Below, piece by piece: positions 11,622-61,888 of a stretch of DNA of 64,000 nt. A program made the position numbers and the translations under genes. Positions within the stretch are counted from its first letter, which is position 1; every line of letters starts with the position of its first letter. Below the pieces are notes generated by a model that was not told where the DNA came from, searched no databases, and worked only from the letters and a program-made list of their open reading frames with translations. Source of the DNA: a virus; the IMG/VR virus record IMGVR_UViG_3300045988_126619, positions 64,001 through 128,000 of that record; one strand, 5' to 3'.

Positions 11622-11651
11622 ATCTTTACACCTCTTATTATTTATTTTATG

Positions 11652-12336: not shown

Positions 12337-12407
12337 GCTTAAAAAGTGCTGACGAGTCTTTGAAAATTAAGACGAAACTAGGGGCAACCCTAGTCCACTT
12401 TAAAAGT
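12337..12407 (+). ncRNA. type I hammerhead self-cleaving ribozyme
   Basis: Stem I 12343-12348/12396-12401; core CUGACGA 12349-12355; stem II GUCUU/AAGAC 12356-12360/12369-12373; GAA 12374-12376; stem III ACUAGGG/CCCUAGU with GCAA loop 12377-12394; cleavage after C12395. Confidence 0.85.
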
Positions 12408-12437
12408 GAATTTTAATTAAATAAGGAGCGTTTAAAG

Positions 12438-12869: not shown

Positions 12870-12890
12870 TAATGTTTTTATTAAAAGTTG

Positions 12891-12919
12891 TTGACATTTA
12901 TAAAATTATCTATTATAAT
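12891..12919 (+). promoter_or_regulatory. sigma-A-type promoter
   Basis: -35 TTGACA 12891-12896, 17-nt spacer, -10 TATAAT 12914-12919. Upstream TTATTAAAAGTTG UP-like tract. Confidence 0.7.
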
Positions 12920-23360: not shown

Positions 23361-24335
23361 ATGAAAAAATACCTATACGAACAATATTTCAACGAACTAA
23401 ATGAAGATTTAAAAGTTGGTAAGGTTAGGGAAAACACTTACAAATCAAAGAAAAGTGATTTGAACACGCTTTACAATTATATGGCAGAACTTGGCTATAC
23501 AACAGAAAAAGATTTTTTTGAAAATGTTAGGCAATCAGATATAGACCAGTTTGCAGAACAATTAAAAACACAATATAAACCTTCCACATATAACAGAAAA
23601 ATAGCAACATTTAAAAAGTTTTTTAACTATCTAATTGACAATTCTTATATAGTTAATGTAAACTATTTTAACAATATTAAACAAATATCTAATGATATAG
23701 TGGAGGAAAAGACAAAAGAAAAAGATATTATTTCTATTGATAAAGTAAAAATGTTGTTAAATGCAACAGAAGAAAAAGACCAAGAAAAACAAAGTACATT
23801 TGAGTTTAATGCAAAAAGAAATAAAGCAATAATTACTATTTTAACTTGTTATGGTAGTAGAATTGAAGAAATTTTATCAACAAAGTTTTCAGACATAAAG
23901 GAAACAGAGAATAAAATTCAATATATAGATATTCCAAAAACTAGAGTTAAAAATCGCTTGCATAAAAGAATATTTATTGCAAATGCTATAAAAGAAAGCT
24001 TGGAGGAATATTTAAAAATCAGAAATGAAGTTCTACCATACAATGAAGATGATTATATATTCAGTAGTGTAAATGGTAAAAAATTGACTAGCAATAACAT
24101 AAATGAAGCATTAAGCAACTTATGTAAAAAAGCAAATATAAATAAACATATCACGTGTCATTGTTTTAGACATATTTGCACGTTAGCATTACAAGAAAAA
24201 TCAATACCAGAATACGACATTGATTATATTATAGGTTGGAAAAAGGGGGATTCTATGCAACAGAGATATTCAAAACATATGCCAATAGAAAAGATTAATA
24301 AAATTATATCCGCCACGGATTTACTGCAAAAATAG
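23361..24335 (+). CDS. tyrosine recombinase / phage integrase family
   Basis: GSRIEEIL (Arg), HCFRHICT (H-x-x-R), GWKKG..QQRYSKH (catalytic Tyr region), and an N-terminal SAM-like core-binding domain. Confidence 0.8.
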   Translation: MKKYLYEQYFNELNEDLKVGKVRENTYKSKKSDLNTLYNYMAELGYTTEKDFFENVRQSDIDQFAEQLKTQYKPSTYNRKIATFKKFFNYLIDNSYIVNVNYFNNIKQISNDIVEEKTKEKDIISIDKVKMLLNATEEKDQEKQSTFEFNAKRNKAIITILTCYGSRIEEILSTKFSDIKETENKIQYIDIPKTRVKNRLHKRIFIANAIKESLEEYLKIRNEVLPYNEDDYIFSSVNGKKLTSNNINEALSNLCKKANINKHITCHCFRHICTLALQEKSIPEYDIDYIIGWKKGDSMQQRYSKHMPIEKINKIISATDLLQK

Positions 24336-26005: not shown

Positions 26006-26983
26006 ATGAAAATGGAAAAATTTAAACAATATATAGAAGAAACAACAAACGAAGGGCAATTAAATAAGTATCAAAAAAATAAATTACAATGGCTTTATGA
26101 TAGTAAATATTCATATAATTCAAAATTGAATTTTTGGAAATTATTTAAAAGAAATGTTGATTTTGTAGAGTTGGAAAAGAATAAAGATGTTTATGATTTT
26201 GATAGACAAGAAATAATTGATTTAATTAAAAACACACCTACGACAAAAGTTTCAACAAAGTTAACAATATTTAGTATGATAAGTAGGTATATTGATTGGG
26301 CGGTTCAAAGAGGATTTAATTACATGGGTAATCCTTGCGATACTATCAATGTACACAAGATTTTAGATATTGATACAGAGGTAACAAAGGAACAATATAA
26401 ATCTCTACATGACTTTTATGATTGGTTAGGACAATTAAAAAGAGCAACACCAGTTGATAAAATGATTTTATTAATGTTGAGATATGGTATAGATGTCAAA
26501 AATATTGGAGAAATAAAAATGCAAGATATGGATATAGAAAAGAATATTTTACATTGTAAAAATGGTGATATAGAAGTATCCTTACCTATTGATGAAGAAT
26601 TTATTCAGATGGCAATAAAATCTAATGAATGTATAGAATCAGATGATGTAAGTTATATTGTTTCAGACTATATTGCAAAAGTACAAACAAATATGCAAGT
26701 TCCGACTTTAGATAAAACAGTAATTTATAACAGGATTAATGTTATTTTTAAAAGAGCAGAAGAAAAAAGAATATCTATTCCTTTATTAAATTTAAGTAGA
26801 AGATATGACATCTTATATAACAAATATCTTCTTAACGGAGAAGTTACAATTGATGATGTAAAGGAAACATTAAAGATATTTAATGGTAAATTTACACCAA
26901 ATCAAGCGTTAACATTAAAAAGGAATTTTGAATTGGCGATGGGTGGAGAAATTAAAGTCAATACATTTAGAACAAGAAAATAA
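26006..26983 (+). CDS. integrase-fold protein without an obvious catalytic RHRY set; possible MrpR/YopR-like DNA-binding regulator
   Basis: N-terminal SAM-like region (..TIFSMISRYIDWAVQRGF..NPCD). I could not find an H-x-x-R..Y signature. 325 aa. Confidence 0.4.
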   Translation: MKMEKFKQYIEETTNEGQLNKYQKNKLQWLYDSKYSYNSKLNFWKLFKRNVDFVELEKNKDVYDFDRQEIIDLIKNTPTTKVSTKLTIFSMISRYIDWAVQRGFNYMGNPCDTINVHKILDIDTEVTKEQYKSLHDFYDWLGQLKRATPVDKMILLMLRYGIDVKNIGEIKMQDMDIEKNILHCKNGDIEVSLPIDEEFIQMAIKSNECIESDDVSYIVSDYIAKVQTNMQVPTLDKTVIYNRINVIFKRAEEKRISIPLLNLSRRYDILYNKYLLNGEVTIDDVKETLKIFNGKFTPNQALTLKRNFELAMGGEIKVNTFRTRK

Positions 26984-37247: not shown

Positions 37248-37490
37248 ATGAAAAAATATGAATGTGTTAAAGCATTTTTAGTTCCATTATGTGATGATGA
37301 TGGTTTCATTATAGAGAATGAAGACAAATATATAGAAGAAGGTTCTATATGGAGTACACCAAAAGATGAAAATTATAGATTGATAGGAGCAGAAGTTAGA
37401 CTTGAAAAAAGTGATTGTGAACGGTTAGAATGGTTAGAAATAACTCAAGAAGATTTAGAAGACAAATTTAGATTGATAGAAGGTGTGTAA
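37248..37490 (+). CDS. hypothetical protein
   Basis: SD AAGGGGGA upstream. Confidence 0.55.
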   Translation: MKKYECVKAFLVPLCDDDGFIIENEDKYIEEGSIWSTPKDENYRLIGAEVRLEKSDCERLEWLEITQEDLEDKFRLIEGV

Positions 37491-37491
37491 A

Positions 37492-38925
37492 ATGATAGAT
37501 AAAGAATTAAATAAAAATATGGAAGTATTAAATATGTTGAGAAAAAGGATTATTATTTTGCCAGAAGTAAGGCTTATATTAGATAAACTTCACATAAATA
37601 ATCATAAGGCTTATATTGTGGGAGGTTATGTTAGAGATTCATTGTTAAAGAATCGTATGCCACATGATTGTGATATATGCACGTCTGCTACACCACAAGA
37701 AATTATGGATATATTTAAAAATTATAAAATAATTCCTACAGGTTTACAACATGGGACAGTAACTATTTGTATGAAATGGGGCGATTATGAAGTAACTACA
37801 TTTAGAAAAGATGGGGAATATTTAGATGGTAGACACCCACAAACAATTGATTTTGTTAATGATTTAAAAGAAGATTTGAGCAGAAGGGATTTTACGATTA
37901 ATGCGTTAGCTTATAATGAAGAAGAAGGATTAATTGATTATTTTGGAGGAAAGGAAGACCTTGAGAATAAAATCATAAGATGTGTAGGAGATGCTGAAAA
38001 AAGATTTAAAGAAGATGGATTGAGAATATTAAGAGCATACAGATTCTCTGCACAATTAGGATTTACTATAGAATATAATACAAGTAGTATATTAGCATAT
38101 AAAGGTGTAAAAACAAATATAGATAACGTATCAAGAGAAAGAATAAGAGAAGAATTAAACAAAATTATATTATCTGATAATTCAAGAGAAGTATTGCTTA
38201 ATATGGTTGATGATGGAATATGTAAAAGTATATTTGGGGATTTTACATTTGAAGATATGATGTTTTTTAATCAGAATAATCCTTATCACAATAGAACATT
38301 ACTCAATCATACACTAACTGCCATGACTATTGCTCCACCAATTTTAGAAGTTAGATTGGCATTATTATTTCATGATATAGGTAAATTACAAACACAAGCA
38401 ACTGATGATAAAGGCATTTCTCACTATTATAATCATTCAAAAGTATCAGCAGAATTAGCTTTAAAGTATTTAAAAGGATTAAAATATGATAATAAAACAA
38501 TAGATATGGTTGTTACATTGATTGCAAACCATGATTTTACATTTGATAATTATGATTATATAATTAAGAAACAATTGAAGAAGCTTCTTAATAAACATGG
38601 GGAAGAAATTGTTAAGAATTTAATAATAATTAGAAAATGTGATATATTAGCACAATCAGAAAAGTATTATTATGACCGATTAGAAAAAATTTATAAAGTT
38701 GAACGTTTACTAAATGATGTTTTAGAAGACCAAGAATGTTTTCAAATTAAAGATTTGGCTATAAACGGAAATGATTTAATTACAATAGGTTATGAGCAAG
38801 GTGTAGAACTTGGGAAAACTTTAAAATATATTGTAGACCTTGTTATAGAAGAACATTTGAATAATGACAAAGAAGAATTATTAGAATATGCAAAATTTTT
38901 ATTAAAAACACTTGACACAAAATAA
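37492..38925 (+). CDS. cca: CCA-adding tRNA nucleotidyltransferase with HD domain
   Basis: GGYVRDSLL, DCDICT, RRDFTINA, ERIREEL, then LLFHDIGK (HD). ATG 37492 follows SD GAAGGTG. Confidence 0.85.
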   Translation: MIDKELNKNMEVLNMLRKRIIILPEVRLILDKLHINNHKAYIVGGYVRDSLLKNRMPHDCDICTSATPQEIMDIFKNYKIIPTGLQHGTVTICMKWGDYEVTTFRKDGEYLDGRHPQTIDFVNDLKEDLSRRDFTINALAYNEEEGLIDYFGGKEDLENKIIRCVGDAEKRFKEDGLRILRAYRFSAQLGFTIEYNTSSILAYKGVKTNIDNVSRERIREELNKIILSDNSREVLLNMVDDGICKSIFGDFTFEDMMFFNQNNPYHNRTLLNHTLTAMTIAPPILEVRLALLFHDIGKLQTQATDDKGISHYYNHSKVSAELALKYLKGLKYDNKTIDMVVTLIANHDFTFDNYDYIIKKQLKKLLNKHGEEIVKNLIIIRKCDILAQSEKYYYDRLEKIYKVERLLNDVLEDQECFQIKDLAINGNDLITIGYEQGVELGKTLKYIVDLVIEEHLNNDKEELLEYAKFLLKTLDTK

Positions 38926-49546: not shown

Positions 49547-49575
49547 TTGACATAAAATAAATGATAGTATATAAT
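49547..49575 (+). promoter_or_regulatory. consensus promoter with box (head of the PspA/TerD module)
   Basis: -35 TTGACA 49547-49552, 17-nt spacer, -10 TATAAT 49570-49575. Confidence 0.8.
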
Positions 49576-49599
49576 AGAATCATAAGGAAGGTGTTAAAT

Positions 49600-49779
49600 A
49601 TGATGAAAAAATTTAAAAAAGATAAGATTGTTTTAGAAGGTGGTTACGTTCCCACAAGATTTACAAATGTAGAAGGAAGTCTTCAAGAAATTAATAGGGG
49701 TTGTGGTATTCACAAATCTAAAAAAGCTTATAAAAGAAATCTAAAACACAGAAAGAAGGAATTAGAATATGATTTTTAA
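49600..49779 (+). CDS. 59-aa basic protein
   Basis: SD AAGGAAGG 8 nt before ATG 49600. The track start at 49561 lies inside the promoter box. Confidence 0.5.
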   Translation: MMKKFKKDKIVLEGGYVPTRFTNVEGSLQEINRGCGIHKSKKAYKRNLKHRKKELEYDF

Positions 49780-50431
49780 GAAAATTTGGCAAACAATTAA
49801 AAAGGTCTTATCATTCTTATCTCATAGAGTAGATAAATCAATTCCAGTAGAAGACCAATTAGAAATTATGAAAAAAGACCTACTACAAAAGAAACATGAT
49901 ATTGAAAATAATTCTAATCTTATGCAAATAAGAGGGATGAAACAACAATATGAGCAGGAACTCAAAGACCTAAGAAGAGAATTTGCAAATGCAAACTTTG
50001 ATAAAACTATTAAATTTTTAAAAGATAATAATGATACAGAACACGCATTAGAAACACTAAAGAAAAAGAAAAGACTAGAATCAAAAATAGAAGCAACTAA
50101 GGATAGACTTAAACAAGCAAAAGAAGCTGATAGAAATATCGTTAAGAAATTAAATCTATTAGATGCTAAGATTCAAGCTACAACAGATAAGATTGAAGAA
50201 TTAAAAGAAAGAAATCAATATGCAGAACAAACAAATGCTATTGCTGATTTAATGAACCAATTAAACGATATTGATACTGGTGTAGATGTTGATGGAATTT
50301 CAGATAGAATTAAATCTATTGAAAGAGAATCTAATGGAAGACTTGATGAATTTAATAGAAGAAGTTCTGGAGAAATTGCTAGACAAGAATCTTTAGATAA
50401 TGCTTTACTAGAAGAATTAAATAATTATTAA
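49769..50431 (+). CDS. PspA/IM30-family coiled-coil membrane-stress protein
   Basis: N-terminal amphipathic IWQTIKKVLSFL, then PVEDQLEIMKKDL, then a long heptad-rich region. 220 aa, the typical PspA size. Confidence 0.6.
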   Translation: MIFKKIWQTIKKVLSFLSHRVDKSIPVEDQLEIMKKDLLQKKHDIENNSNLMQIRGMKQQYEQELKDLRREFANANFDKTIKFLKDNNDTEHALETLKKKKRLESKIEATKDRLKQAKEADRNIVKKLNLLDAKIQATTDKIEELKERNQYAEQTNAIADLMNQLNDIDTGVDVDGISDRIKSIERESNGRLDEFNRRSSGEIARQESLDNALLEELNNY

Positions 50432-50456
50432 TTAAATAATATACGAAAAAATAATT

Positions 50457-50480
50457 GAGGTGTAAATCATTATACACCTC
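50457..50480 (+). other. perfect 8-bp hairpin after the pspA-like gene
   Basis: GAGGTGTA-N8-TACACCTC, with no T-run. It directly precedes the box at 50487-50499. Confidence 0.4.
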
Positions 50481-50517
50481 ACACATAAAATAAATGATAA
50501 AAAGGAGAATGAAAAGT

Positions 50518-50934
50518 ATGAGATATGAAGTAGATATGAAATTAAGTGGAAAAATAGATGGAAGTGAAATAGAACAATTATTAACAACAACTGTTGTTAG
50601 AACATTAGTTGGAGGTATGCTATTATTAAAAGATGAAGAATATATTGAAGAAAGAGGTCTAACAAAAAAAGATTTAGCTGAAATAAAAGACAAAATGGAA
50701 ACTGCTAAAAAAGATTACTTAGAATTATTAGGAAATTTAGATGGAGTTACACCAGTAGGTGATAAACAAGCTAGATTTATTAGTGTAAATATGACTAATC
50801 CAACAGATATTAATTCGGTGGCACTTGTAGTTTTAAAAGGAATTACTGTATCAAATGAAGAAGAATTATTAAAGTTTGCAGGAGCAAAGTTAATAGAAGA
50901 AGATGATATAATTTATGCTGAAACAGTATTATAG
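50518..50934 (+). CDS. acidic 138-aa protein, TerD-partner paralog 1
   Basis: MRYEVDMKLSG.. and ..EEELLKFAGAKLIEEDD align with MKYKVDERLSG.. and ..DEELLKFVSAKIMIDNED of 53038..53460. Confidence 0.6.
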   Translation: MRYEVDMKLSGKIDGSEIEQLLTTTVVRTLVGGMLLLKDEEYIEERGLTKKDLAEIKDKMETAKKDYLELLGNLDGVTPVGDKQARFISVNMTNPTDINSVALVVLKGITVSNEEELLKFAGAKLIEEDDIIYAETVL

Positions 50935-50946
50935 GGGGTAGTTTAT

Positions 50947-51501
50947 ATGGCAGTAACATTACAAAAAAGACAGGGAATATCATTATCAAAAGGTTTCTCT
51001 AAATTAAGATTTACAGTAAATTGGGAGTATAAAGATGCAGATGTAGACATTGAAGCAATTGTTGTAGATGATGGTATTGCTTTAATTGATGAAGACCTAG
51101 TTTTTTATGGCAATTTAAGACATCCAAGTAAATCAGTTAGACATTTAGGAGATATAAGAAATGGTGGTGGTTCTGATGGTGGAACTGAAACTATATCAAT
51201 AGATTTAACTAAACTACCTAATGATAGAAATGAAATTATTCTAACAGCTTCAATAGATGGAGCAGAATCAAACGGAAATAATTTTGGTAATATAGGTAAA
51301 GTTAGATGTGAATTAATTGATGATACAAATAGTAAATTATTAGCAACATATGATGTTGATGTTGATTTAGATATGGAAATTGCAGGAGTGTTATGTAGAA
51401 TATATAGAAAAGAAGATAATCAATTTGGATATGAAACAGTTGGGCAAGCTTATCCAAGCTTAGAAAGTATGGTAACACATTACGGAATAGTGGTGGCATA
51501 A
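50947..51501 (+). CDS. terD: TerD-domain stress protein
   Basis: MAVTLQKRQGISL.., DVDIEAIVV, DLVFYGN, HLGDIRNGGGSDGGTETISIDL (Ca-binding GD..G..D/E loop). 184 aa. Confidence 0.8.
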   Translation: MAVTLQKRQGISLSKGFSKLRFTVNWEYKDADVDIEAIVVDDGIALIDEDLVFYGNLRHPSKSVRHLGDIRNGGGSDGGTETISIDLTKLPNDRNEIILTASIDGAESNGNNFGNIGKVRCELIDDTNSKLLATYDVDVDLDMEIAGVLCRIYRKEDNQFGYETVGQAYPSLESMVTHYGIVVA

Positions 51502-51509
51502 AATAAACG

Positions 51510-51545
51510 ACAGCAGGACTTATTATATAGGTTCTGCTGTATTTA
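51510..51545 (+). terminator. terminator-like hairpin
   Basis: 10-bp stem ACAGCAGGAC/GTTCTGCTGT (one G-U), 11-nt loop, ATTT. Confidence 0.45.
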
Positions 51546-51564
51546 AAAACGAGGAGAGAGAACT

Positions 51565-51900
51565 ATGAAGAATAAAGAAATTATTAAATTAGATGAAAAT
51601 AGATGGGTATTATGGTCATATACAGAAGGAGTTATTTTGACTTGTGATTCAGAAGGAGATTTATTAGAGTATTTAGAAGATTGTAAATGTGTAGATTTAG
51701 ATGTAAAGGAATTTTTAGTTAATAGTAAAATATATGGAGCAAAATTAGAATGTATTGAAGAACTTATGACATATTCTGATAATGAAGATGATTGGGATAT
51801 ATTCTATAATTGGAAGAAAGAAGTGTTATGTTCTGTAGAAGATTTTGATGATTATTGCAGAGCAATAGACAATAAATTAAATGAATTATTAGAGAGGTAA
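51565..51900 (+). CDS. acidic hypothetical protein
   Basis: SD GAGGAGAG upstream. Confidence 0.55.
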   Translation: MKNKEIIKLDENRWVLWSYTEGVILTCDSEGDLLEYLEDCKCVDLDVKEFLVNSKIYGAKLECIEELMTYSDNEDDWDIFYNWKKEVLCSVEDFDDYCRAIDNKLNELLER

Positions 51901-51904
51901 TTAA

Positions 51905-52324
51905 ATGAGTTATGAAGTAACTGTAAGAGAAAGCACAATAAAAATTAAAAAAGAACTTGTTAAACAAGCTTTGGAAGATATTTGCAATCACCAAAAACAA
52001 CATGGAACATTTCAATATTGCTATTTTTTTAATATTGAAGATATAAATTTTAATAATTATGGAATAGATGATAATACATGGAGTGCAATAGATATATTTC
52101 ATGATTGTCTAGGGTTGGTCTGTAAATATGAAGATGATTGTTTATTTATAAAAAGATTAAGATATGACGGTTTAGCAGAAGAATTAGATATATTTAATGT
52201 CATAGCACCATATTGTTATGATGGGGGATATATGGAGTTTTGTGGAGAAGACGGAGAACTATTTAGATACACAATAAAAGATGAATCATGTATAGAACAA
52301 AGTCCTAAAATAGTTTGGGAATAA
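51905..52324 (+). CDS. hypothetical protein
   Basis: SD AGAGAGG upstream. Confidence 0.55.
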   Translation: MSYEVTVRESTIKIKKELVKQALEDICNHQKQHGTFQYCYFFNIEDINFNNYGIDDNTWSAIDIFHDCLGLVCKYEDDCLFIKRLRYDGLAEELDIFNVIAPYCYDGGYMEFCGEDGELFRYTIKDESCIEQSPKIVWE

Positions 52325-52348
52325 ATAAAAAAATATTTTAAAAAAGTA

Positions 52349-52377
52349 TTGACATAAAATAAATGATATGATATACT
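52349..52377 (+). promoter_or_regulatory. sigma-A-type promoter with box
   Basis: -35 TTGACA 52349-52354, 17-nt spacer, -10 TATACT 52372-52377. The leader has a TTGTAGT/ACTACAA hairpin. Confidence 0.6.
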
Positions 52378-52430
52378 AATATTGTAGTCAAGGGAACTAC
52401 AAAATAATAAATAGAAAGAGGGATAAATAA

Positions 52431-52985
52431 ATGGCAATTCAATTATCAAAGAACAAAGGAATTAATTTAAAGAAAGGCTTGGACAAAGTAAGATTTGTTG
52501 TAAGATGGGATTCTAAAGAAGATGTAGATATCCAAGCATTAGTTTTAAAAGACGGACAATCAAGTGCTGATGAAGATTTAGTATTCTACAATCAACCAAC
52601 ACATCCTACAGGAGCAGTAAAACATTCTGGAGATGTAAGAGATGGTTCAAAAGTAGATGGTGATGATGAATATATTGATATTACATTATCTGCTTTACAT
52701 CCACAAAAGAATCAAGTATTATTAACTGCTTCAATAGATAATGCAGTAGAAAAAGGTGTTGATTTTGGAAGTATTGGAAAAGTTACTTGTGAACTTATAA
52801 ATGCTAGTAACAATGAAGTTTTAGCAACATATCAAGTTGATAAAGACTTAGACATGGAAGCTTGTGGAGTTCTTTGTGAATTAAAGAAGAGTGATAATGG
52901 AAGTTGGGATTATAAAGCTGTAGGTCAAGCTTATATGGACTTAGGAGATATGTTAACATCATATGGATTCAATATAGCAGATTAA
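52431..52985 (+). CDS. terD: TerD-domain stress protein
   Basis: MAIQLSKNKGINL.., DVDIQALVL, DLVFYNQ, HSGDVRDGSKVDGDDEYIDITL. 184 aa. Clear paralog of 50947..51501. Confidence 0.8.
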   Translation: MAIQLSKNKGINLKKGLDKVRFVVRWDSKEDVDIQALVLKDGQSSADEDLVFYNQPTHPTGAVKHSGDVRDGSKVDGDDEYIDITLSALHPQKNQVLLTASIDNAVEKGVDFGSIGKVTCELINASNNEVLATYQVDKDLDMEACGVLCELKKSDNGSWDYKAVGQAYMDLGDMLTSYGFNIAD

Positions 52986-53037
52986 TATTAATAAAACATA
53001 AAATAAATGATAATAAATAAAAAGGAGAGATTTGAAT

Positions 53038-53460
53038 ATGAAATATAAAGTAGATGAAAGATTAAGTGGAACAGTAAGATTAGAAATTGGAGAAAGAATG
53101 TTTGTAGAAGATGTTTGTAAAACAATTATTGGTGGAAAAGCATTATTGGAAGATGAAGATTATATTAAAGAGCATAATGTATCAGAAGAAGATTTAAATG
53201 ATGTAGCACAACAAATAGCAGAAGCTGAAAAAGCTTATTTAGCATTATTAAATGATGTAGCAGGAACAACTGATGAAAATGAAGAAGATGCTAAAGAAGT
53301 ACAAAGTATGATTAGAATGTTAGCTTTTGATTCAGAAGGAGAATTAGGACTTTTAGTATTAGAAGGAACTAGAGCAACTAATGATGAAGAATTATTAAAA
53401 TTTGTAAGTGCAAAAATAATGATAGATAATGAAGATATGTATGTTGAAATTGATGAATAA
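53038..53460 (+). CDS. acidic 140-aa protein, TerD-partner paralog 2
   Basis: SD AAAGGAGAG 8 nt before ATG 53038. Paralog of 50518..50934. Confidence 0.6.
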   Translation: MKYKVDERLSGTVRLEIGERMFVEDVCKTIIGGKALLEDEDYIKEHNVSEEDLNDVAQQIAEAEKAYLALLNDVAGTTDENEEDAKEVQSMIRMLAFDSEGELGLLVLEGTRATNDEELLKFVSAKIMIDNEDMYVEIDE

Positions 53461-53476
53461 AAGGAGAGATTGAATA

Positions 53477-54133
53477 ATGGCAGTATCATTACAAAAAAGA
53501 CAAGGAATATCATTAAAGAAAGATAACGGAACAAAATTAACAAAAATCACATTAGGTTTATCTTGGTGTGAAAAGAAGAAAGGAAGGACTGTAACAGAAA
53601 CAGTTCCAAAGAAGGGATTCTTTAATAGATTAATTGGAGCAGTTGAAGAAGTTACAAGAACAATTCCAGTAAATACTAAAGATGTTGATTTAGATACAGC
53701 AGTTCTTGCATATAAAAGAAATGATTATAAAGGTATATGTTACTTTGGTGATAAAGATATGTATATAAGAAATAATCATATTATACACCACTATGGGGAT
53801 GCACTTAGTAGCAATACAAAGTTTACAGAAAAAGATAACGAACAAATAGATATATACTTAGATAAGATTGACACAAACATAATGGATACATTCTATCTTG
53901 TAATGAATATATTCACAAGTGGTATTGACTTTGGAGATATTGAAAATGCTAGAGTTACAGTTTATGATGAAAAAGGTAATAGCATAGCAACATATAATCC
54001 AGTAGATGATTACAGAGGTAATAATGGAATTATAGTTGGTAAAGTTTATCACAATGGTTCTGAATGGAAATTTGAAGCGATTGGTGATGGAAAGAATGTA
54101 TCAAGATTAATCGATTTTAAAAGATATTTATAA
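53477..54133 (+). CDS. divergent TerD-fold protein with an inserted segment
   Basis: MAVSLQKRQGISL.. N-terminus as in the other two. DVDLDTAVL, YGDALSSNTKFTEKDNEQIDIYL. ~35-aa insertion after the first strand. Confidence 0.6.
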   Translation: MAVSLQKRQGISLKKDNGTKLTKITLGLSWCEKKKGRTVTETVPKKGFFNRLIGAVEEVTRTIPVNTKDVDLDTAVLAYKRNDYKGICYFGDKDMYIRNNHIIHHYGDALSSNTKFTEKDNEQIDIYLDKIDTNIMDTFYLVMNIFTSGIDFGDIENARVTVYDEKGNSIATYNPVDDYRGNNGIIVGKVYHNGSEWKFEAIGDGKNVSRLIDFKRYL

Positions 54134-54149
54134 TAATAACATAAAATAA

Positions 54150-54180
54150 ATGATAAGGGATAATAACAATCCTTTATCAT
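54150..54180 (+). other. 12-bp hairpin that sequesters the ATGATA end of a box copy
   Basis: ATGATAAGGGAT-N7-ATCCTTTATCAT (one G-U). Confidence 0.45.
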
Positions 54181-54214
54181 TTAAATAAATTAATTATAAG
54201 GAGAGATAAATAAT

Positions 54215-56833
54215 ATGAAAATTAATAAAGAAGGTTTAAGTAACCAAGAAGTAGAACAAAGTAGAGAAAAATATGGAGCGAATAGACTTCCCGAAAAAGT
54301 ATATCCTACAATATGGGAAAGAATAACAAATGTTTTTAAAGAAGATGGAATAATGACAATGTTATTTGTTTTAGCAATATTGGAAGGAATTGAAGCACTA
54401 GTATGTAGAGAGATACCTTGGGAATGTATAGGAATCATGACTACAGTTAGTGTAGTAACATTTTTTACTATTAATTCAGATTTGAAACAAGAAAAATCAT
54501 TTAAAGATTTGAAAGCATCTATACAAGAGCCTACAGTTACTGTAATAAGAGAAGGAAGAAAACAGATAATTAAACAATCAGACTTAGTAGTTGGTGATAT
54601 TTGTTTACTTAATAATGGAGAAAAAGCTTATGCTGATGGATTGATAATTGAACAAACCGATTTTAAAATTTCAAATGCAGAACTTAATGGTGAATCAGAT
54701 GAAGTAGAAGTTGATACATTTAATTATGTGGAAAATTCAGAAGTTGAATTTACAGATGATGTTTCAAAACAAGAAGGATTTATTAATAGTGGAGCATTAA
54801 TTGTTAATGGTAAAGCTACTATGGGAGTTGTAAGAGTTGGAGAAAACACAGAAAGTGGTAAAGCTTTAGTAAATGTTACTGAAATGAAAACGCCTTTGCT
54901 TGAAAAACTTGATACTTTAACAGAACAAATCACAAGATATGGTGCAGTTGGTGCAACATTAATGTTCGCTATCAATTTTGGAGTGATTGTTTTATTAAAA
55001 GGTGGATTATCATACTTCACAAGTACAGCAGTTCTTAGTATAGGATTAGATATAGTTGCTTGTTTAATGGTTGCATTATCAATATTTAGTGCATCTGCCC
55101 CAGAAGGTCTTCCATTTGTTATTAACTTAGTTCTTTCAGCAAATGTTAACAAGATGAAAAAACACAACGTTTTATTAAAAAATGTTAAAAAAGGTGAAAC
55201 AAGTGGTTCTTTATCAATCTTATTTAGTGACAAAACAGGAACAATGACAAAGAATATAATGTCAATAGTTGAATTTACAGATGGAACAGGAAAAACACTT
55301 AATCGTGGCGAAATTGAAAATTCAAAATACAAAGAATTAATAGATAGAAGTATTGTAATGAGTTCAGATTCATATTATGACGAGAATGGAGATTTAATTG
55401 GTGGTAATGGTACTGATAGAGCATTTAGTAAGTTTGTTGGAGCAGATTTATTTAAACAATATTCAAATAGTACAGTAATTAAATCACAACCATTCAATTC
55501 TAAGAATAAGTATAACGCAGTTCAATTAGATGGATACACTATATATAAAGGTGCAGGAGAAATATTAGTAAACAATTCTAAAAACTTAATAAATACTGAT
55601 TGTTGGGTAAGAGGAATTGAAGAAGAAGATAGAGAAAATCTACAATCTACAATGGATAGAATGATGAATAAGGCTGAAAGAGTTTTAGCTATCGCAATTT
55701 CTAAACAACCATTAGTTGACAATGAACTTCCAAGCGACTTAACATTATTAGCGGTATTTGGTATTAGAGATGAAATAAGAGAAAGTACACCAACAGCTAT
55801 TGAAAATTTAAATAATGCAGGTGTTCAAGTTGTAATGGTAACAGGAGATAATATTAAAACTGCTGATGCTATTGCAAAAGAAATCGGATTATTAAAAGAT
55901 GGAGATTTAAGTTTTACAAATGATATATTAATGGATATGACCGATGAAGAAATCGCTTCAATATTACCTAAATTAAAAGTAGTTGGTAGAGCGAAACCAG
56001 ATACTAAACGTAGATTAAATCATATCGCTCAAAATAACGGTTATGTTACAGGAATGTGCGGAGATGGAGTTAATGATGCTCCTGCCTTAATGCAAGCTGA
56101 TATTGGATTTGCTATGGGTTCTGGAACAGATGTTGCAAAAGATGCAGGTGACGTAGTTATCTTAGATAATAACTTAGCATCAATTGAATATGGTGTTAAG
56201 AGTGGTAGACAAATATTTAAGAATATTCAAAAGTTCTTAAAGTATCAATTAGCAATTAATGTTGGTATTGTTATAACTCCTATTTTAGCTTCATTATGTG
56301 GTGTAACTAAATCATTAGCAGTAACAAGTATTCTATGGATTAATGCAATAATGGATACATTAGCATCACTTGCATTTAGTGGTGAACCTTGTGAAGATAG
56401 TGTGATGAAAGAAAAACCTATCTCAAGAACAGCTAACATAATTAATAAAGACATGATGATTCAAATAGCAACAACTGGTTTATACTTTATAGGAACTGGA
56501 TTATTTATGCTAACAAGTGATGTAATGGGTAATTTATTTGGTGAAAAACAAACAACAGCTTATTTCTCATTATTTGTAATGATAGCGATATTCAATGGTT
56601 TTAATGTAAGAACAGCATCAATTAATTGTTTAAAAGACATTAAAAAGAATCCAAGATTTATTAAGATTATGGCTTTAATTACAGTATTACAAGTGTTATT
56701 AGTAAGTTTTGGTGGTAAAATATTTGATGTTATGCCAATGAACCTTATGGAATGGTTAATTGTAACAGGTATTGCAGTATTAATTATCCCAATAGATTTA
56801 ATTAGAAAAATGATTATGAATAAAACAAAATAA
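54215..56833 (+). CDS. P2-type cation-transporting ATPase, Ca2+-pump-like
   Basis: NGESDEV (TGES variant), APEGLP in TM4, DKTGTMT, KGAGE, MVTGDN, GDGVNDAPAL. 872 aa with ~10 TM segments. Confidence 0.8.
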   Translation: MKINKEGLSNQEVEQSREKYGANRLPEKVYPTIWERITNVFKEDGIMTMLFVLAILEGIEALVCREIPWECIGIMTTVSVVTFFTINSDLKQEKSFKDLKASIQEPTVTVIREGRKQIIKQSDLVVGDICLLNNGEKAYADGLIIEQTDFKISNAELNGESDEVEVDTFNYVENSEVEFTDDVSKQEGFINSGALIVNGKATMGVVRVGENTESGKALVNVTEMKTPLLEKLDTLTEQITRYGAVGATLMFAINFGVIVLLKGGLSYFTSTAVLSIGLDIVACLMVALSIFSASAPEGLPFVINLVLSANVNKMKKHNVLLKNVKKGETSGSLSILFSDKTGTMTKNIMSIVEFTDGTGKTLNRGEIENSKYKELIDRSIVMSSDSYYDENGDLIGGNGTDRAFSKFVGADLFKQYSNSTVIKSQPFNSKNKYNAVQLDGYTIYKGAGEILVNNSKNLINTDCWVRGIEEEDRENLQSTMDRMMNKAERVLAIAISKQPLVDNELPSDLTLLAVFGIRDEIRESTPTAIENLNNAGVQVVMVTGDNIKTADAIAKEIGLLKDGDLSFTNDILMDMTDEEIASILPKLKVVGRAKPDTKRRLNHIAQNNGYVTGMCGDGVNDAPALMQADIGFAMGSGTDVAKDAGDVVILDNNLASIEYGVKSGRQIFKNIQKFLKYQLAINVGIVITPILASLCGVTKSLAVTSILWINAIMDTLASLAFSGEPCEDSVMKEKPISRTANIINKDMMIQIATTGLYFIGTGLFMLTSDVMGNLFGEKQTTAYFSLFVMIAIFNGFNVRTASINCLKDIKKNPRFIKIMALITVLQVLLVSFGGKIFDVMPMNLMEWLIVTGIAVLIIPIDLIRKMIMNKTK

Positions 56834-56840
56834 TAAATTG

Positions 56841-56874
56841 TAAGAGTGGTAGAAATATCACTCTTATTTTTTTT
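56841..56874 (+). terminator. strong intrinsic terminator
   Basis: 8-bp stem TAAGAGTG/CACTCTTA, 10-nt loop, T8. Confidence 0.85.
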
Positions 56875-56882
56875 AAAAACTA

Positions 56883-57866: not shown

Positions 57867-58412
57867 ATGAAAAAAATATTAGTAGTAATTGATATGCAAA
57901 ATGATTTTATAACAGGAAGTTTAGGAACAAAGGAAGCACAAGAAATTGTTCCAAAAGTAATTGATAAGATTAAAGAATATGATAAATATGAAAACAGTCT
58001 TATATATGCAACACAAGATACTCATTATATAGGTTATTTAAAAACTCTTGAAGGATTAAAATTACCAATAGAACATTGTATAAAAGATACAGAAGGATGG
58101 GAAATACAAAAAGATATATTAAAAGAATTAAAAGAAAGAAAAGCTTGTATATCAGAGAAAATAACATTTGGAGATATAAATTTAGCAGAGAATTTTTCTG
58201 GATTAAATTGTGTTAATCATGATGTTGAAATAGAATTAATTGGGTTATGCACAGATATATGTGTTATATCTAACGCATTAACAATTAAAGCTTACGTTCC
58301 AGAAGTAAAAATTATAGTAGATGCAAGTTGTTGTGCAGGTGTAACACCACAAAGTCATAAAAATGCACTAGAAGCTATGAAGATGTGTCAAGTAGAAATT
58401 ATTAATGAATAG
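57867..58412 (+). CDS. pncA: nicotinamidase / isochorismatase-family hydrolase
   Basis: ILVVIDMQNDFITGSLG, catalytic-Cys block LIGLCTDICV. 181 aa. Confidence 0.7.
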   Translation: MKKILVVIDMQNDFITGSLGTKEAQEIVPKVIDKIKEYDKYENSLIYATQDTHYIGYLKTLEGLKLPIEHCIKDTEGWEIQKDILKELKERKACISEKITFGDINLAENFSGLNCVNHDVEIELIGLCTDICVISNALTIKAYVPEVKIIVDASCCAGVTPQSHKNALEAMKMCQVEIINE

Positions 58413-58426
58413 GAGATGTATAGATT

Positions 58427-59251
58427 ATGGTAAAAGTAAATGGAGAAGAACACAATTATTATTTATTCCCTAATAATGAATTAAAGGTATCACCTATTAG
58501 ATATGGTAATTATGTTGAAATTAAAGATGGCGATGATATAGAAGTAGAATTAATATATGAAAATTCAATAGACCTTGTTCACCTTATATTTGTAAAGAAA
58601 TTTTTAGATGAAGCCTATCCACATAGTTGTGTAGATTTAGTTATGAAATATATTCCATACTCAAGAATGGACAGGGAAACACCTTTTCAAATGTTTACTT
58701 GTAAATATTTATGTCAATTAATAAATGATTTATGTTTTAGTTCTGTAACAGTATTAGACCCTCATTCAAATGTATGTGTGGGAGCATTAGAACGTGTTAA
58801 GCAAATAGATTTATCATATTATGTTAAACAAGTATTAGACTACGAAAGAGTGAAAGAAGGAACTTATATAGATGCTATATTCCTTCCAGACGTAGGTGCA
58901 TATAAAAAGTATACAGAAGTATTGGATAATGTAAAGTTACCTAAATTTTGGGGGAATAAACATCGTGACTTAAACAATGGAGCAATAACTGATTATGATA
59001 TAATTGGAGATATTGATGTTAATGGTAAAAATATACTTATAGTTGATGATATATGCGTTAAGGGATTTACCACATTATTTGCCTCAAAGAAATTAAAAGA
59101 ACTAGGAGCAAATAAAGTCATTTTCTATTGTTCTCATTGTGAAGATGCTATTCATAGTGGACAATTATTAAAAACAGATTATGTAGATAGAATATATACA
59201 ACTGATAGCATGAAATTTGATGAACATAATAAAATAATTAAATTATATTAG
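58427..59251 (+). CDS. ribose-phosphate pyrophosphokinase (Prs) homolog; candidate ADPR-pyrophosphate synthetase (Adps-like)
   Basis: YIPYSRMDR (YxRQDR-like), VLDPHS (DLH-like), ILIVDDICVKGFT (PRPP loop). 274 aa, shorter than housekeeping Prs. Confidence 0.6.
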   Translation: MVKVNGEEHNYYLFPNNELKVSPIRYGNYVEIKDGDDIEVELIYENSIDLVHLIFVKKFLDEAYPHSCVDLVMKYIPYSRMDRETPFQMFTCKYLCQLINDLCFSSVTVLDPHSNVCVGALERVKQIDLSYYVKQVLDYERVKEGTYIDAIFLPDVGAYKKYTEVLDNVKLPKFWGNKHRDLNNGAITDYDIIGDIDVNGKNILIVDDICVKGFTTLFASKKLKELGANKVIFYCSHCEDAIHSGQLLKTDYVDRIYTTDSMKFDEHNKIIKLY

Positions 59252-59275
59252 GAGAAAGTATTATATCAAAATATG

Positions 59276-59304
59276 TTGACATAAAATAAATGATAGTATA
59301 TAAT
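59276..59304 (+). promoter_or_regulatory. consensus promoter with box
   Basis: -35 TTGACA 59276-59281, 17-nt spacer, -10 TATAAT 59299-59304. The leader has a hairpin GTAGAGAGCAG..CTGCTCCTAC. Confidence 0.8.
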
Positions 59305-59370
59305 AAATAATGTAGAGAGCAGTTAGTAAATCTGCTCCTACAATATAAATAAATGAAAGAGAGTGATTAT

Positions 59371-60843
59371 ATGAAAACAAACCCAATGTTATTGATTGAT
59401 TTTTATAAGGCTTGTCATAGTGATATGTTACCAAAAGGAATAACTAAATCAGTCAGTTATTTTACACCTAGAATGAAAAGAGTTGAAAGATGGGACAATG
59501 TAGTTATGTTCGGTCTACAAGGATTTATTAAAACTTATTTAATTGATTATTTTAACGAAAATTTCTTTAATCAAACAACAGAAAAGGCAGTATTTGAATA
59601 TGAAAGAGTTCTTAAATATTCTTTAGGGGAAGATTCTTTTAGTAGTGAAAAAGTAAGAAAACTTCATAAATTAGGTTATTTACCAATTGAAATTTTAGCA
59701 ATTAAAGAAGGAACAAAAGTACCTATAAAGATACCTATGTTTGCAATAACAAATACTCATGATGATTTTGCATGGCTACCACAAGCCTTAGAATCACTTA
59801 TATCTGCTGAAATGTGGCATCCTATGATATCAGCTACAGTTGGAGCAACTTATAGAGATATAGTAAATAAATATTATGATATTTCATGTGATGATGATAT
59901 TCCAAGAGCAAAAGCATTAGGAGATTTTAGCTTTAGAGGACAAGAATGTTTACAATCAGCAATTAAGAGTTCAGCAGGTTGGTCACTATCATTCTTAAAT
60001 TCAGCTACAGTTCCTGCTATACCATATTTAGAAGATAATTATAATTGTAATTGCATAACAGAACCAGTTTTATTTGGGGCAGTTTCTACAGAACATTCTG
60101 TGATGTGTTCTAATTATTCTGTAGATGGGGATGAAGAAACATTAATCAGAAGATTATTAACTGAATTATATCCAAATGCTTCATTTAGTGCTGTTTTAGA
60201 TTCTTATGATTATTGGAGAATTGTTAAAGAAGTTCTTCCTAAATTAAAAGAAGAAATACTTAACCACAATGGATGTTTCTTAATAAGGGGAGATAGTGGG
60301 GATTGTGTAGAAGTTGTTACACAAACTGTATTTGAGTTATGGAAGACATTTGGAGGAACTGTTAATAGTAAAGGCTATAAAGTATTAGACCCACACGTAA
60401 AAGCTATTTATGGTGATTCTATAACAGTTCAAAGATGTGAAGAAATATATAAGATACTTATAGAAAATGGATTTGCTTGTTCAAATGTAGCACTTGGTGT
60501 TGGCTCATTCTCAATGCAAGCAATTGAAGAAGATGGAATACTTAAACCATTTACTAGAGATACTTATGGAATGGCTATTAAAGCTACTTACATGGAAATA
60601 AATGGTGAATCATATCCAATATTTAAGAATCCAAAGGATGGAGGATTTAAGAAATCGCAAAAAGGCTGTTGTAGTGTATTCTTTGATGAAGATGGGGAAA
60701 TGGTTTATGCAGATGGATTAACTTGGGAAGAAGCTTGTGGTGATGAAGAAAACTTATTACAACCAGTATTTAAAGATGGTCAGTTAGTTAGGGAACAATC
60801 ATTACAAGAAATAAGAAATATATTACATGAAGGAGGATTTTAA
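59371..60843 (+). CDS. nicotinamide phosphoribosyltransferase (NAMPT/NadV) family; candidate Namat-like enzyme
   Basis: NPMLLIDFYKACH N-terminus typical of NAMPT. 490 aa. ATG 59371 follows SD AGAGAGTG. Confidence 0.7.
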   Translation: MKTNPMLLIDFYKACHSDMLPKGITKSVSYFTPRMKRVERWDNVVMFGLQGFIKTYLIDYFNENFFNQTTEKAVFEYERVLKYSLGEDSFSSEKVRKLHKLGYLPIEILAIKEGTKVPIKIPMFAITNTHDDFAWLPQALESLISAEMWHPMISATVGATYRDIVNKYYDISCDDDIPRAKALGDFSFRGQECLQSAIKSSAGWSLSFLNSATVPAIPYLEDNYNCNCITEPVLFGAVSTEHSVMCSNYSVDGDEETLIRRLLTELYPNASFSAVLDSYDYWRIVKEVLPKLKEEILNHNGCFLIRGDSGDCVEVVTQTVFELWKTFGGTVNSKGYKVLDPHVKAIYGDSITVQRCEEIYKILIENGFACSNVALGVGSFSMQAIEEDGILKPFTRDTYGMAIKATYMEINGESYPIFKNPKDGGFKKSQKGCCSVFFDEDGEMVYADGLTWEEACGDEENLLQPVFKDGQLVREQSLQEIRNILHEGGF

Positions 60844-60846
60844 AAT

Positions 60847-61149
60847 ATGAAATTAGGTCTTATTTATGATTATTTTGGAACTGTTAAGTTTGGTTCTATT
60901 GAAGTAGAAGAAAAACCAAAGACATATAAAACAATAGGTGGGGAATCAGTACCTAGAGTATATAGAAGTGTTATAAATAAAGATATGATTAATAAAGTGT
61001 ATGATGATGTTGTTCTTATATATGATTGTTCTAAAGAAGAAGCTATTAAAATATGGAATGAACATTTTGATAGAAAAATTAATACTAAAAAAGAATATTT
61101 TGAGAAAGAAGTAGAACGTTTAGAAGGTTTAATTATAAAGGAGGAATAA
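60847..61149 (+). CDS. hypothetical protein embedded in the NAD module
   Basis: SD AAGGAGGA upstream. Confidence 0.55.
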   Translation: MKLGLIYDYFGTVKFGSIEVEEKPKTYKTIGGESVPRVYRSVINKDMINKVYDDVVLIYDCSKEEAIKIWNEHFDRKINTKKEYFEKEVERLEGLIIKEE

Positions 61150-61150
61150 T

Positions 61151-61888
61151 ATGTATAAATTTGATGCAAAGGAAACAGCAAGACAATTAATAGAATGGAT
61201 AAAAGAATATTTTGAAAATAATGGGGATAAAAATACTAAAGCTATCATTGGTATTTCTGGTGGAAAAGATAGTTCTATAGTAGCAGGATTATGTGTTGAA
61301 GCACTAGGTAAGGATAGAGTAATTGGTGTAAAGATGCCACAAGGAGAACAAGAAGATATAGAATATGCAGAGGATATTATTGATTTCTTAGGCATAAAAT
61401 CATATGAAATAAATATTGAGGATTCAGTTTTTGGAGTATATAGAGAATTAGATTTTGAGAAAATACCTAGAAACTCAATAGTAAATTCCAATACACCTGC
61501 AAGAATAAGAATGACTGTATTATATGCAGTTAGTGGAGCATTGGGTGGTAGAGTAGCAAATACATGTAATCTATCAGAAGATTATGTCGGTTATGCTACA
61601 AAGTTTGGTGATGGAGCAGGAGATTTTTCACCATTATCTAATTTAACTGTAACAGAGGTTAAAGCTATTGGAAGAGAAATAGGTATTCCAGATTATTTAA
61701 TAGATAAGACACCTATAGATGGACTTTGTGGACTATCAGATGAAGATAATTTAGGTTTTTCTTATGATACTTTAGATAAGTATATTAGAACTGGTATATG
61801 TGAAGATGAAGAAACTAAGAGAAGAATAGATGCTATGCACAAAAATAATTTGCATAAGTTATTACCTATGCCATCATTTAAATTATAA
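61151..61888 (+). CDS. nadE: NH3-dependent NAD+ synthetase
   Basis: PP-loop GISGGKDSS, and C-terminal DEDNLGFSYDTLD typical of NadE. 245 aa. Confidence 0.8.
   Translation: MYKFDAKETARQLIEWIKEYFENNGDKNTKAIIGISGGKDSSIVAGLCVEALGKDRVIGVKMPQGEQEDIEYAEDIIDFLGIKSYEINIEDSVFGVYRELDFEKIPRNSIVNSNTPARIRMTVLYAVSGALGGRVANTCNLSEDYVGYATKFGDGAGDFSPLSNLTVTEVKAIGREIGIPDYLIDKTPIDGLCGLSDEDNLGFSYDTLDKYIRTGICEDEETKRRIDAMHKNNLHKLLPMPSFKL

Follow-up and report, generated by a model that had tools for sequence, protein, structure and literature searches.

Ten open reading frames (ORFs) lie on the plus strand between positions 49547 and 56875 of a 64,000-nucleotide stretch of viral DNA (positions 64,001 to 128,000 of IMG/VR record IMGVR_UViG_3300045988_126619; the whole stretch is called the window below), each with a GGAG-type ribosome-binding site (Table 1). 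They encode a PspA/IM30-like coiled-coil protein, three TerD proteins (TerD1 to TerD3), two copies of an acidic orphan protein (X and X'), three further small proteins, and a P-type ATPase of the Ca2+-pump type. Gene order and positions are those given in an original prediction made from the sequence alone, which had also described the genes as one transcription block between a consensus promoter and a strong terminator. Both of these signals are present. The window has a GC content of 25 to 29%, with nearly all gene-like ORFs on the plus strand, and contains 17 sites that match TTGACA-17-TATAAT perfectly, all on the plus strand, where 0.05 would be expected; the promoter at 49547 is therefore not a chance match. 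The terminator hairpin (56840-56867) with its U8 tail has a folding energy of −14.3 kcal/mol (z = −5.2), no further terminator-like site was found on the plus strand inside the block, and the next perfect promoter begins downstream at 56883. The idea of a single block requires some amendment, because the second TerD gene has a promoter of its own, as had been proposed (at 52349, with 11/12 matches and a TG extension), and a further site with 9/12 matches, at 54136, lies in the 81 nucleotides (nt) between the end of TerD3 and the ATPase gene. The block is thus better described as having internal promoters in addition to a main one. A hairpin that separates the PspA-like gene from X (−12.7 kcal/mol, z = −5.05) lacks a U-tract and so is not a terminator; its role may lie in RNA processing or stability, or it may act as an attenuator and fix the ratio of PspA-like to downstream expression.

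Table 1. Coordinates of the block and of other features of the window (17-mer, a 17-nt repeat; aa, amino acids).
Feature	Position	Strand	Remarks
Promoter, perfect sigma-A/sigma-70 consensus TTGACA-17-TATAAT	49547-49575	+	Spacer carries the 17-mer ACATAAAATAAATGATA
Basic ORF, 59 aa	49600-49779	+	pI 9.95; overlaps the start of the PspA-like gene by 11 nt
PspA/IM30-like coiled-coil protein, 220 aa	49769-50431	+	PF04012, 27.8 bits
Hairpin between the PspA-like gene and X	50456-50481	unassigned	9-bp stem, no U-tract; followed by a 17-mer copy at 50483
X, acidic orphan, 138 aa	50518-50934	+	pI 4.5; paralog of X'
TerD1, 184 aa	50947-51501	+	Pfam TerD, 123.2 bits
Acidic protein, 111 aa	51565-51900	+	6 Cys; family-less
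Acidic protein, 139 aa	51905-52324	+	8 Cys; family-less
Internal promoter	52349-52377	+	11/12 match, TG extension; also holds the 17-mer
TerD2, 184 aa	52431-52985	+	Pfam TerD, 127.2 bits
X', acidic orphan, 140 aa	53038-53460	+	pI 4.2; ends 16 nt before TerD3
TerD3, long divergent form, 218 aa	53477-54133	+	pI 8.3; Pfam TerD, 95.5 bits
Weak promoter-like site	54136-54164	+	9/12 match; exact 17-mer copy, upstream of the ATPase gene
PMCA-type (P2B-like) Ca2+ P-type ATPase, 872 aa	54215-56833	+	Four Pfam domains and motifs
Intrinsic terminator	56840-56875	+	12-bp stem, 4-nt loop, U8 tail
Tyrosine integrase	23361-24335		Phage_integrase, E = 5e-23
325-aa protein with MrpR N-terminal core-binding domain	26006-26983		E = 3e-10
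CCA-adding enzyme with HD domain	37483-38925		tRNA repair
Trifunctional kinase/phosphatase/RNA ligase, 727 aa	47355-49538		tRNA repair
NAD+-salvage cluster	57867-61888		Isochorismatase/nicotinamidase-like, Prs-like phosphoribosyltransferase, NAMPT, NAD synthase

The last gene of the block encodes the ATPase, and its proposed identity as a P2-type, Ca2+-pump-like enzyme was borne out. The protein contains Pfam's Cation_ATPase_N, E1-E2_ATPase, Hydrolase, and Cation_ATPase_C domains and all of the motifs that had been claimed for it (PEGLP at residue 296, DKTGT at 339, TGDN at 543, and GDGVNDAPAL at 616), and its best solved relatives are all Ca2+ pumps, namely, Arabidopsis ACA8 (E = 2e-105), Listeria LMCA1 (lmo0841; E = 2e-96), PMCA1/2, and SPCA1. 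These four motifs are invariant in an alignment of ten homologs, as is the M6 segment LWINAIMDT, which pairs with LWVNLIMDT of ACA8. The key residues are E297 within PEGLP (M4), D339 within DKTGT, and N710 and D714 within NAIMD (M6), and the ligands of Ca2+ site II are all present (the M4 Glu, E297, and the N-x-x-x-D Asn and Asp of M6, N710 and D714). The highest-scoring NCBIfam model was the PMCA-type TIGR01517 (505.5 bits; the PMR1-type runner-up scored 360.6), and a near-identical Clostridium butyricum protein carries the NCBI name "PMCA-type." From the conserved M4/M6 pattern, the M5 and M6 sequence, and general knowledge of P2 pumps, we infer an exporter of the PMCA/LMCA1 type with one Ca2+ site. 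The phage pump matches LMCA1, plant ACA8, and animal PMCA over its full length and keeps their single-site M4 Glu and M6 Asn/Asp, whereas a calmodulin-regulated extension is absent. Its identity to the nearest bacterial homologs is 39 to 41%, and in a rough neighbor-joining tree of the ATPases the phage copies fall at several positions, with the window's copy and that of the viral locus L012 together on long branches.

The TerD identity of the three proteins so named in the original prediction is secure, as each matches Pfam TerD (PF02342) over its full length at a score far above the cut-off of 25.3 bits; TerD structures in the PDB were also matched (2KXT, E = 8e-21 with TerD2; 3IBZ, E = 5e-17). 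TerD2 aligns end to end with 2KXT, the Ca2+-binding TerD of Klebsiella, such that its acidic loop GDVRDGSKVDGDDE lies opposite GDNRTGEGDGDDE. This loop keeps the GD..G..DGDDE core, with one residue extra, of what we take, from structure work on the Klebsiella protein, to be the Ca2+-binding motif, GDN(R/L)TG(E/A)GDGDDE. To judge from this loop, TerD2 very probably binds Ca2+. The loop of TerD1 (GDIRNGGGSDGGTE) has lost two acidic ligands and its motif is partly degenerate, while that of TerD3 (GDALSSNTKFTEKDNE) is divergent, and Ca2+ binding by these two proteins is uncertain. TerD1 and TerD2 are 50% identical to each other, and TerD3 is ~22% identical to both. TerD3 contains an insert, with a GFFNRLIG segment within KKGFFNRLIGAV, that is common to the sequences L8a, L9a, and L12b. 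No ortholog of TerD1 was found in the related loci L013 and L004, and TerD1 is confined to the window's lineage.

The combination of TerD proteins with a pump of this subfamily is common in bacteria. In a set of 80 bacterial loci (L060-L139), which are the best ATPase matches in species-representative genomes, TerD lies no more than 3 kb from the ATPase gene in 37, TelA is present in 24, and YceG in 23. The TerD-linked loci belong mostly to Lachnospiraceae, Ruminococcus, Flavonifractor, Butyricicoccus, and Clostridium, and the usual arrangement in Clostridia is a single cluster, YceG–TelA–TerD×3–ATPase, which is a relative of the Bacillus subtilis yceCDEFGH cluster. In Clostridium sp. CAG:221, the gene for the nearest bacterial ATPase (39% identical) directly follows one encoding a fusion of YceG and TerD (565 aa). 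In this chromosomal operon of the Clostridia and other Bacillota, the TerD paralogs adjoin an ATPase of the same subfamily, and the TerD nearest the pump is long and insert-bearing, as is TerD3; in the bacterial-type clusters of loci L008 and L009, the best match to TerD3 is the insert-bearing TerD adjoining the ATPase. The block derives from this operon, in which the linkage of three TerD genes to a PMCA-type ATPase is common. The two differ in that the Clostridia operon has TelA and YceG, neither of which has a match in the window, whereas the phage block has the PspA-like protein, X and X', the two Cys-rich proteins, and phage promoters. The sequences thus portray the phage block as a remodelled copy of the Clostridia operon in which TelA and YceG have been replaced by the PspA-like protein and lineage-specific small proteins.

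The original prediction held that the arrangement was not a recognized one. This was not borne out, given the Clostridia operon, the many IMG/VR contigs described below, and the components reported in Jug phages (PMC12880540). That report, published in 2026, describes terD genes, a pspA-like gene, and a Ca-ATPase in gut phages; two terD genes flank a hypothetical gene, which is comparable to the order TerD2–X'–TerD3, and a third terD adjoins the pspA-like gene (PMC12880540). The paper also states that the Jug ATPase is highly transcribed and that the ATPase also occurs in 81 other huge phages and in four phages of 159 to 197 kb with Bacteroidaceae or Bacillota affinities (PMC12880540). As described there, the terD regions and the ATPase of Jug phages form separate operons, with the ATPase paired with a protein of 77 to 91 aa, whereas the genes of the block run from one main promoter to one terminator in a 159-kb Clostridium phage. 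The main text of the Jug paper makes no mention of a TerD–ATPase linkage or of a bacterial parent operon (PMC12880540). No description of the Clostridia linkage between TerD and a PMCA-type ATPase was found in the literature searched, a search that did not extend to Anantharaman et al. 2012 on Ter systems. The components were therefore already known, and the new details are their arrangement as a single unit, the family of X, and a derivation from YceG–TelA–TerD–ATPase.

Related viral loci were retrieved from IMG/VR with an alignment of the ATPase, which alone succeeded (a scan with the single ATPase protein gave no match). The 44 loci form 12 clusters at ≥80% identity, 8 of which have TerD within 3 kb of the ATPase, and the survey of gene neighborhoods shows a TerD–ATPase linkage that is recurrent in phages as well as in bacteria. 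The relative L013, with an ATPase 70% identical to that of the window, has the order PNK/ligase–PspA-like–X–108 aa–141 aa–TerD–X–X–long TerD–ATPase, L004 shows PspA-like–X–139 aa–TerD, and L005 shows TerD–X–X–long TerD–ATPase. More distant cassettes show three architectures. The first, in the L041 group, is YceG–TelA–TerD×3–ATPase–PNK/ligase. The second, in the L023 group (14 loci), is ATPase–vWA(TerF-like)–TerD–PspA-like, the last with a hydrophobic N terminus. The third, PspA-like–TerD–long TerD–ATPase, has the same core as the window and is found without X in L011/L012 (a 145.8-kb contig; ATPase 48% and PspA-like protein 44% identical), L016, and L017; the four core proteins are 34 to 53% identical to the window's over all of these loci and 34 to 46% identical in L016 and L017. 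Cassettes of all three architectures differ from the window in gene order and accessory genes and lack X/X', the Cys-rich pair, and the 17-mer.

Several further observations were made at these loci. The L023 cassette (e.g., 7998-12912; GC content, 0.34) may come from Jug phages or their relatives; if it does, the Jug ATPase and one terD/pspA-like region would be adjacent. Members of the L033 group (L032-L037, L056, and L057) have Prs–NAMPT upstream of the ATPase, PNK/ligase downstream, a gene for a YadA-type trimeric autotransporter adhesin (740 aa; 11430-13652 in L033) 0.8 kb downstream of the Ca-ATPase, and no TerD. An Acb2/Tad1-hairpin protein, of the anti-CBASS/anti-Thoeris sponge family, is encoded at 16630-16989 in L012, 4 kb downstream of the cassette. 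Loci L008, L009, and L010 (MT836648, MT840059, and MT838269; human-fecal records labeled "Bacteriophage sp.," unverified) have bacterial-type clusters with a GC content of 0.42 to 0.59, comprising YceG–TelA–TerD×3–ATPase, ATPase–TerD–TerD, and an ATPase gene beside a FAD synthetase gene. It may be that these three records represent bacterial DNA within virome data and are not phage genomes.

The ATPase gene is split within its most conserved motif, exactly at GDG|VNDAPAL, in L013 and in many natural relatives. The insertion in L013 (11855-13046; 1192 nt) has its own copies of the 17-mer and an ORF of 240 aa that includes an HNH-like motif, IDRIENNKGYNPSNCRWV; the split ATPase is also seen in proteins P0013-P0021, P0148, P0151, and P0157. 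A known group I or group II intron was considered, and Rfam gave no match to the insertion and Pfam none to the 240-aa ORF. Candidate identities for the insertion are a mobile intron and a free-standing homing endonuclease.

The assignment of the 220-aa protein to PspA/IM30 holds in part. Its residues 1-190 are colinear with positions 1-183 of the 220 in the PspA_IM30 profile (PF04012), but at a score (Table 1) below the cut-off of 33.9 bits. PF04012 is the top family for eight of nine homologs from four phage lineages, of which the best scored 33.4 bits (L016), and a PDB profile search returned Vipp1, IM30, or PspA as all of its seven best matches (E = 0.006-0.05). The protein therefore appears PspA-like in character, with family membership unproven. 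It resembles PspA/IM30/Vipp1 in length, in coiled-coil character, and in an N terminus (MIFKKIWQTIKKVLSFL) that reads as an amphipathic helix, whereas pspBC and the other partners found in psp systems are absent beside it. The homologs in L016 and the L023 group open with a hydrophobic, transmembrane-like stretch, which would indirectly support membrane association. The possibility that the protein is a diverged TelA was ruled out (hhalign probability, 0.2%).

X and X' are paralogs (33% identity, E = 2e-25), in agreement with the two copies of an unknown acidic protein that had been recognized in the sequence. A word-index search with X found near-identical proteins only, a single-protein scan of IMG/VR gave no match, and an exhaustive profile search of 1.84 billion representatives gave about seven real members of 51 to 141 aa, one of which is a 51-aa fragment. 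An AF2 model built from nine sequences (pLDDT 88.6; a model from four sequences was poor, with a pLDDT of 63) predicts a small beta-sheet with a long alpha-hairpin, for which Foldseek found no match with E < 0.1 in the PDB and BFVD. The gene orders in L013, L004, and L005 place X after the PspA-like gene and before the long TerD, and the placement of X' next to TerD3 is conserved in L005 and L013; it is this adjacency that suggests X may be a partner of TerD. The 111-aa protein is conserved in L013 (36% identity) and the 139-aa protein in L004 (66%) and L013 (55%), and searches of Pfam, PHROGs, and NCBIfam gave nothing reliable for these two or for the 59-aa protein. The 59-aa ORF is called in L001/L003 and is missing from the closest relatives, L004 and L013, which leaves doubt as to whether it is a gene. 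Both orphan proteins and the Cys-rich acidic pair are accessories specific to the lineage.

The block is phage encoded and is not part of a host chromosome flanking a prophage, the case that the original prediction had named as fatal to it. The other such case, a failure of profile searches to support the TerD, PspA, or P-type ATPase assignments, did not arise either. Phage-type genes lie on both sides, the contigs are ~159 kb in length, and the block proteins bear Caudoviricetes names (in nr, "MAG TPA: ... [Caudoviricetes sp.]"). Contigs of 159,027 bp (ENA) and 159,411 bp (JGI) hold the identical ATPase sequence, cluster members are found on contigs of up to 162.5 kb, and the block is located at about 108 to 131 kb of ~159-kb contigs that were assembled independently in ENA, JGI, and NCBI. 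The upstream flank encodes RNase H and the PNK/phosphatase/RNA ligase, the latter 42 to 44% identical to SPbeta-like phage proteins, and the downstream flank encodes isochorismatase, Prs-like, NAMPT, NAD synthase, and YorH-domain proteins; in the relative L013 a baseplate gene (Baseplate_J) lies downstream. Elsewhere, the window encodes helicases, the CCA-adding enzyme, FolD, the tyrosine integrase, and the protein with an MrpR-type core-binding domain. Identical and near-identical proteins have C. butyricum accessions, and a C. butyricum assembly holds the same proteins. The carrier is a ~159-kb SPbeta-like phage linked to C. butyricum, with the block in its accessory region, and the integrase and MrpR-like protein together point to a temperate lifestyle like that of SPbeta and to a recombinase-derived master repressor. 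Searches of phage and plasmid collections with the DNA of the block and its flanks gave no related record, only a short conserved stretch of the ATPase. Also encoded in the window are FolD (methylenetetrahydrofolate dehydrogenase/cyclohydrolase; 5081-5938) and a 262-aa protein with a weak HicA-toxin-like C-terminal match (2457-3245).

The promoters of the block share a repeated sequence with many others in the window. The 17-mer ACATAAAATAAATGATA occurs in 40 copies in the window (≤2 mismatches; 0.66 expected), nearly all of them intergenic and 36 on the plus strand. It is found sometimes within a perfect TTGACA-17-TATAAT promoter and sometimes without −35/−10 boxes, and all 17 perfect promoters carry it. 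Five of the copies are exact and fall within the block (49550, 50483, 52352, 52996, and 54139), such that every subunit of the block is preceded by one copy, and further sites include 2380, 3260, 5956, 16183, 40937, 45861, 57356, and 59279. Close relatives retain the repeat (L013 has 15 copies), and distant cassettes lack it. In SPbeta, the master repressor MrpR is a recombinase-like protein that binds a repeated 15-bp element in early promoters (PMC10516654). By analogy with that element (SPBRE), the 17-mer may be the operator of the MrpR-like protein encoded in the window. Because all of the perfect promoters share this phage-specific repeat, the block is likely to be co-regulated with them and to be early or derepressed; it probably belongs to the repressor-controlled lytic gene set, with early timing suggested by the SPbeta parallel.

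Our best explanation, which we hold with modest confidence, is that the block is a phage-adapted TerD–Ca2+-ATPase envelope-stress operon that keeps cytosolic Ca2+ low and the membrane sealed and energized. The genes would be transcribed from a consensus promoter of the host type, of which the window has at least 17. The 872-aa pump, to judge from its conserved residues, would use ATP to drive Ca2+ out of the cytoplasm, and the soluble TerD proteins would bind Ca2+, with the full motif in TerD2. TerD3, which is basic and insert-bearing and is always encoded beside the pump gene, may act at the pump or the membrane, and the PspA-like protein would bind and stabilize the membrane. The net effect in the infected cell would be low cytosolic Ca2+ and a membrane that remains sealed and energized.

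A number of observations weigh against this explanation. The ATPase falls 1.5 bits short of the equivalog cut-off of TIGR01517 (507.05), and in the variants with a split gene the pump may be dispensable or nonfunctional unless the insertion is spliced out. The Ca2+ motifs of two of the three TerD proteins, TerD1 and TerD3, are degenerate in sequence. No member of the PspA-like family reaches the PF04012 gathering score, and coiled-coil composition can inflate scores of the PspA_IM30 type. Finally, in the relative L007, whose contig spans 4.2 kb, an X homolog is retained but neither TerD nor the pump is seen.

The strongest of the alternatives is that the block is dedicated to counter-defense, in which case abortive-infection effectors that perforate or depolarize the membrane would admit Ca2+, TerD would sense or buffer it, the PspA-like protein would reseal the membrane, and the pump would clear the ion, allowing the infected cell to survive long enough for phage release. 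This sharpens the original prediction, by which the module buffers Ca2+ and membrane stress and might blunt abortive infection, a proposal that agrees with the domain content and with the neighboring tRNA-repair and NAD+-salvage genes. PspA and Vipp1 are members of the ESCRT-III superfamily, and in eukaryotes Ca2+ triggers the repair of gasdermin pores by ESCRT-III. Likely counter-defense functions lie on either side of the block, namely, the PNK/phosphatase/RNA ligase upstream and the NAD+-salvage set downstream, and the latter, whose region has transcription units with perfect promoters of their own at 56883, 57353, and 59276, resembles phage NAD+-reconstitution counter-defense pathways. The pairing recurs elsewhere: PNK/ligase directly follows TerD×3–ATPase in the L041 group of huge-phage contigs, Prs–NAMPT lies near the ATPase in the L033 group and L055, and NAMPT adjoins the ATPase in L017. 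The Acb2/Tad1-hairpin protein near the L012 cassette points the same way. Since tRNA-repair and NAD+-salvage neighbors recur across unrelated viral contigs, a counter-defense role of the cassette is plausible, though this is guilt by association only. We know of no defense system that is defeated by Ca2+ export, a literature search on calcium influx with phage and abortive infection yielded nothing relevant, and the parent operon in bacteria serves housekeeping or stress rather than defense or anti-defense. We regard a dedicated counter-defense function as a tentative proposal and on balance an unlikely one.

It is also possible, with rather less likelihood, that the block is expressed from the prophage and raises the tolerance of the lysogen to envelope-active antimicrobials, bacteriocins, or superinfecting phages, much as a plasmid ter operon would. 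Known effects of plasmid ter operons are inhibition of phages and resistance to colicins, and TelA of Listeria has a part in nisin resistance. The tyrosine integrase and MrpR-like protein, the presence of the element in a C. butyricum genome assembly, and the SPbeta-like affinities (the PNK/ligase identity and the YorH domain) are all consistent with lysogenic conversion or exclusion. However, the 17-mer is common to dozens of phage promoters and intergenic regions, which suggests co-regulation with the bulk of the early genes rather than an independent moron; moreover, the same cassette occurs in very large viral contigs (145 to 241 kb), and the ~159-kb contigs were recovered without host flanks in several samples.

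To a Ca2+-triggered membrane-repair circuit, analogous to the eukaryotic Ca2+/ESCRT-III repair of gasdermin pores, we assign a similarly low likelihood. In such a circuit Ca2+ would enter through lesions made by pore-forming abortive-infection effectors of the host, superinfecting phages, or premature holin action, and TerD, on sensing it, would bring in or switch on the PspA-like ESCRT-III relative so that the membrane is resealed. TerD3 would stimulate the pump and thereby reset Ca2+, and X and X' would be lineage-specific adaptors. Were this true, large phages of Bacillota and Bacteroidota would have repeatedly co-opted a host Ter/Yce stress operon as a counter-defense island beside genes for tRNA repair and NAD+ reconstitution.

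A role in sporulation-linked Ca2+ traffic, with the pump and binders diverting Ca2+ to block or exploit sporulation, seems very improbable. The presumed host, a Clostridium, forms spores and accumulates Ca-dipicolinate, and the B. subtilis PMCA-type pump YloB is expressed in sporulation, but the cassette types occur on contigs with a GC content of 22 to 55%, some of them with apparently non-spore-forming hosts (such as the L033 group, whose YadA-type adhesin is typical of diderm bacteria), and no sporulation genes were seen beside the block. That the block is recently captured host DNA with no phage function is scarcely credible: its parts clearly come from a bacterial operon and the ATPase gene is disrupted in some relatives, yet recent capture is disfavored by the low identity of the ATPase to its bacterial homologs and by a phage-like GC content (0.28 to 0.29, near that of the rest of the phage), and the idea is largely refuted by conservation, as the catalytic motifs are all intact, the four-gene core is kept across phage lineages, and phage-specific 17-mers are interleaved with the genes of the block.

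Bacterial calcium signaling and homeostasis are poorly understood, and TerD has been without a clear job for decades. The repeated linkage of TerD to a PMCA-type exporter in Clostridia, together with its uptake by phages, leads to a testable hypothesis for TerD, namely, that it couples Ca2+ sensing or buffering to export and membrane protection, and since C. butyricum is cultivable, the system is a tractable one in which to test it. Large phages took up the TerD–pump pair several times and added a PspA-like protein, which suggests that such phages recurrently need to control the Ca2+ and the membrane integrity of the host. Given its repeated co-location with genes for tRNA repair and NAD+ salvage, the cassette is a reasonable candidate for a new class of counter-defense or host-maintenance module. 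The most valuable lead may be the general linkage of TerD to a Ca2+ pump, with PspA, TelA, or vWA partners, that has been repeatedly adopted by large phages.

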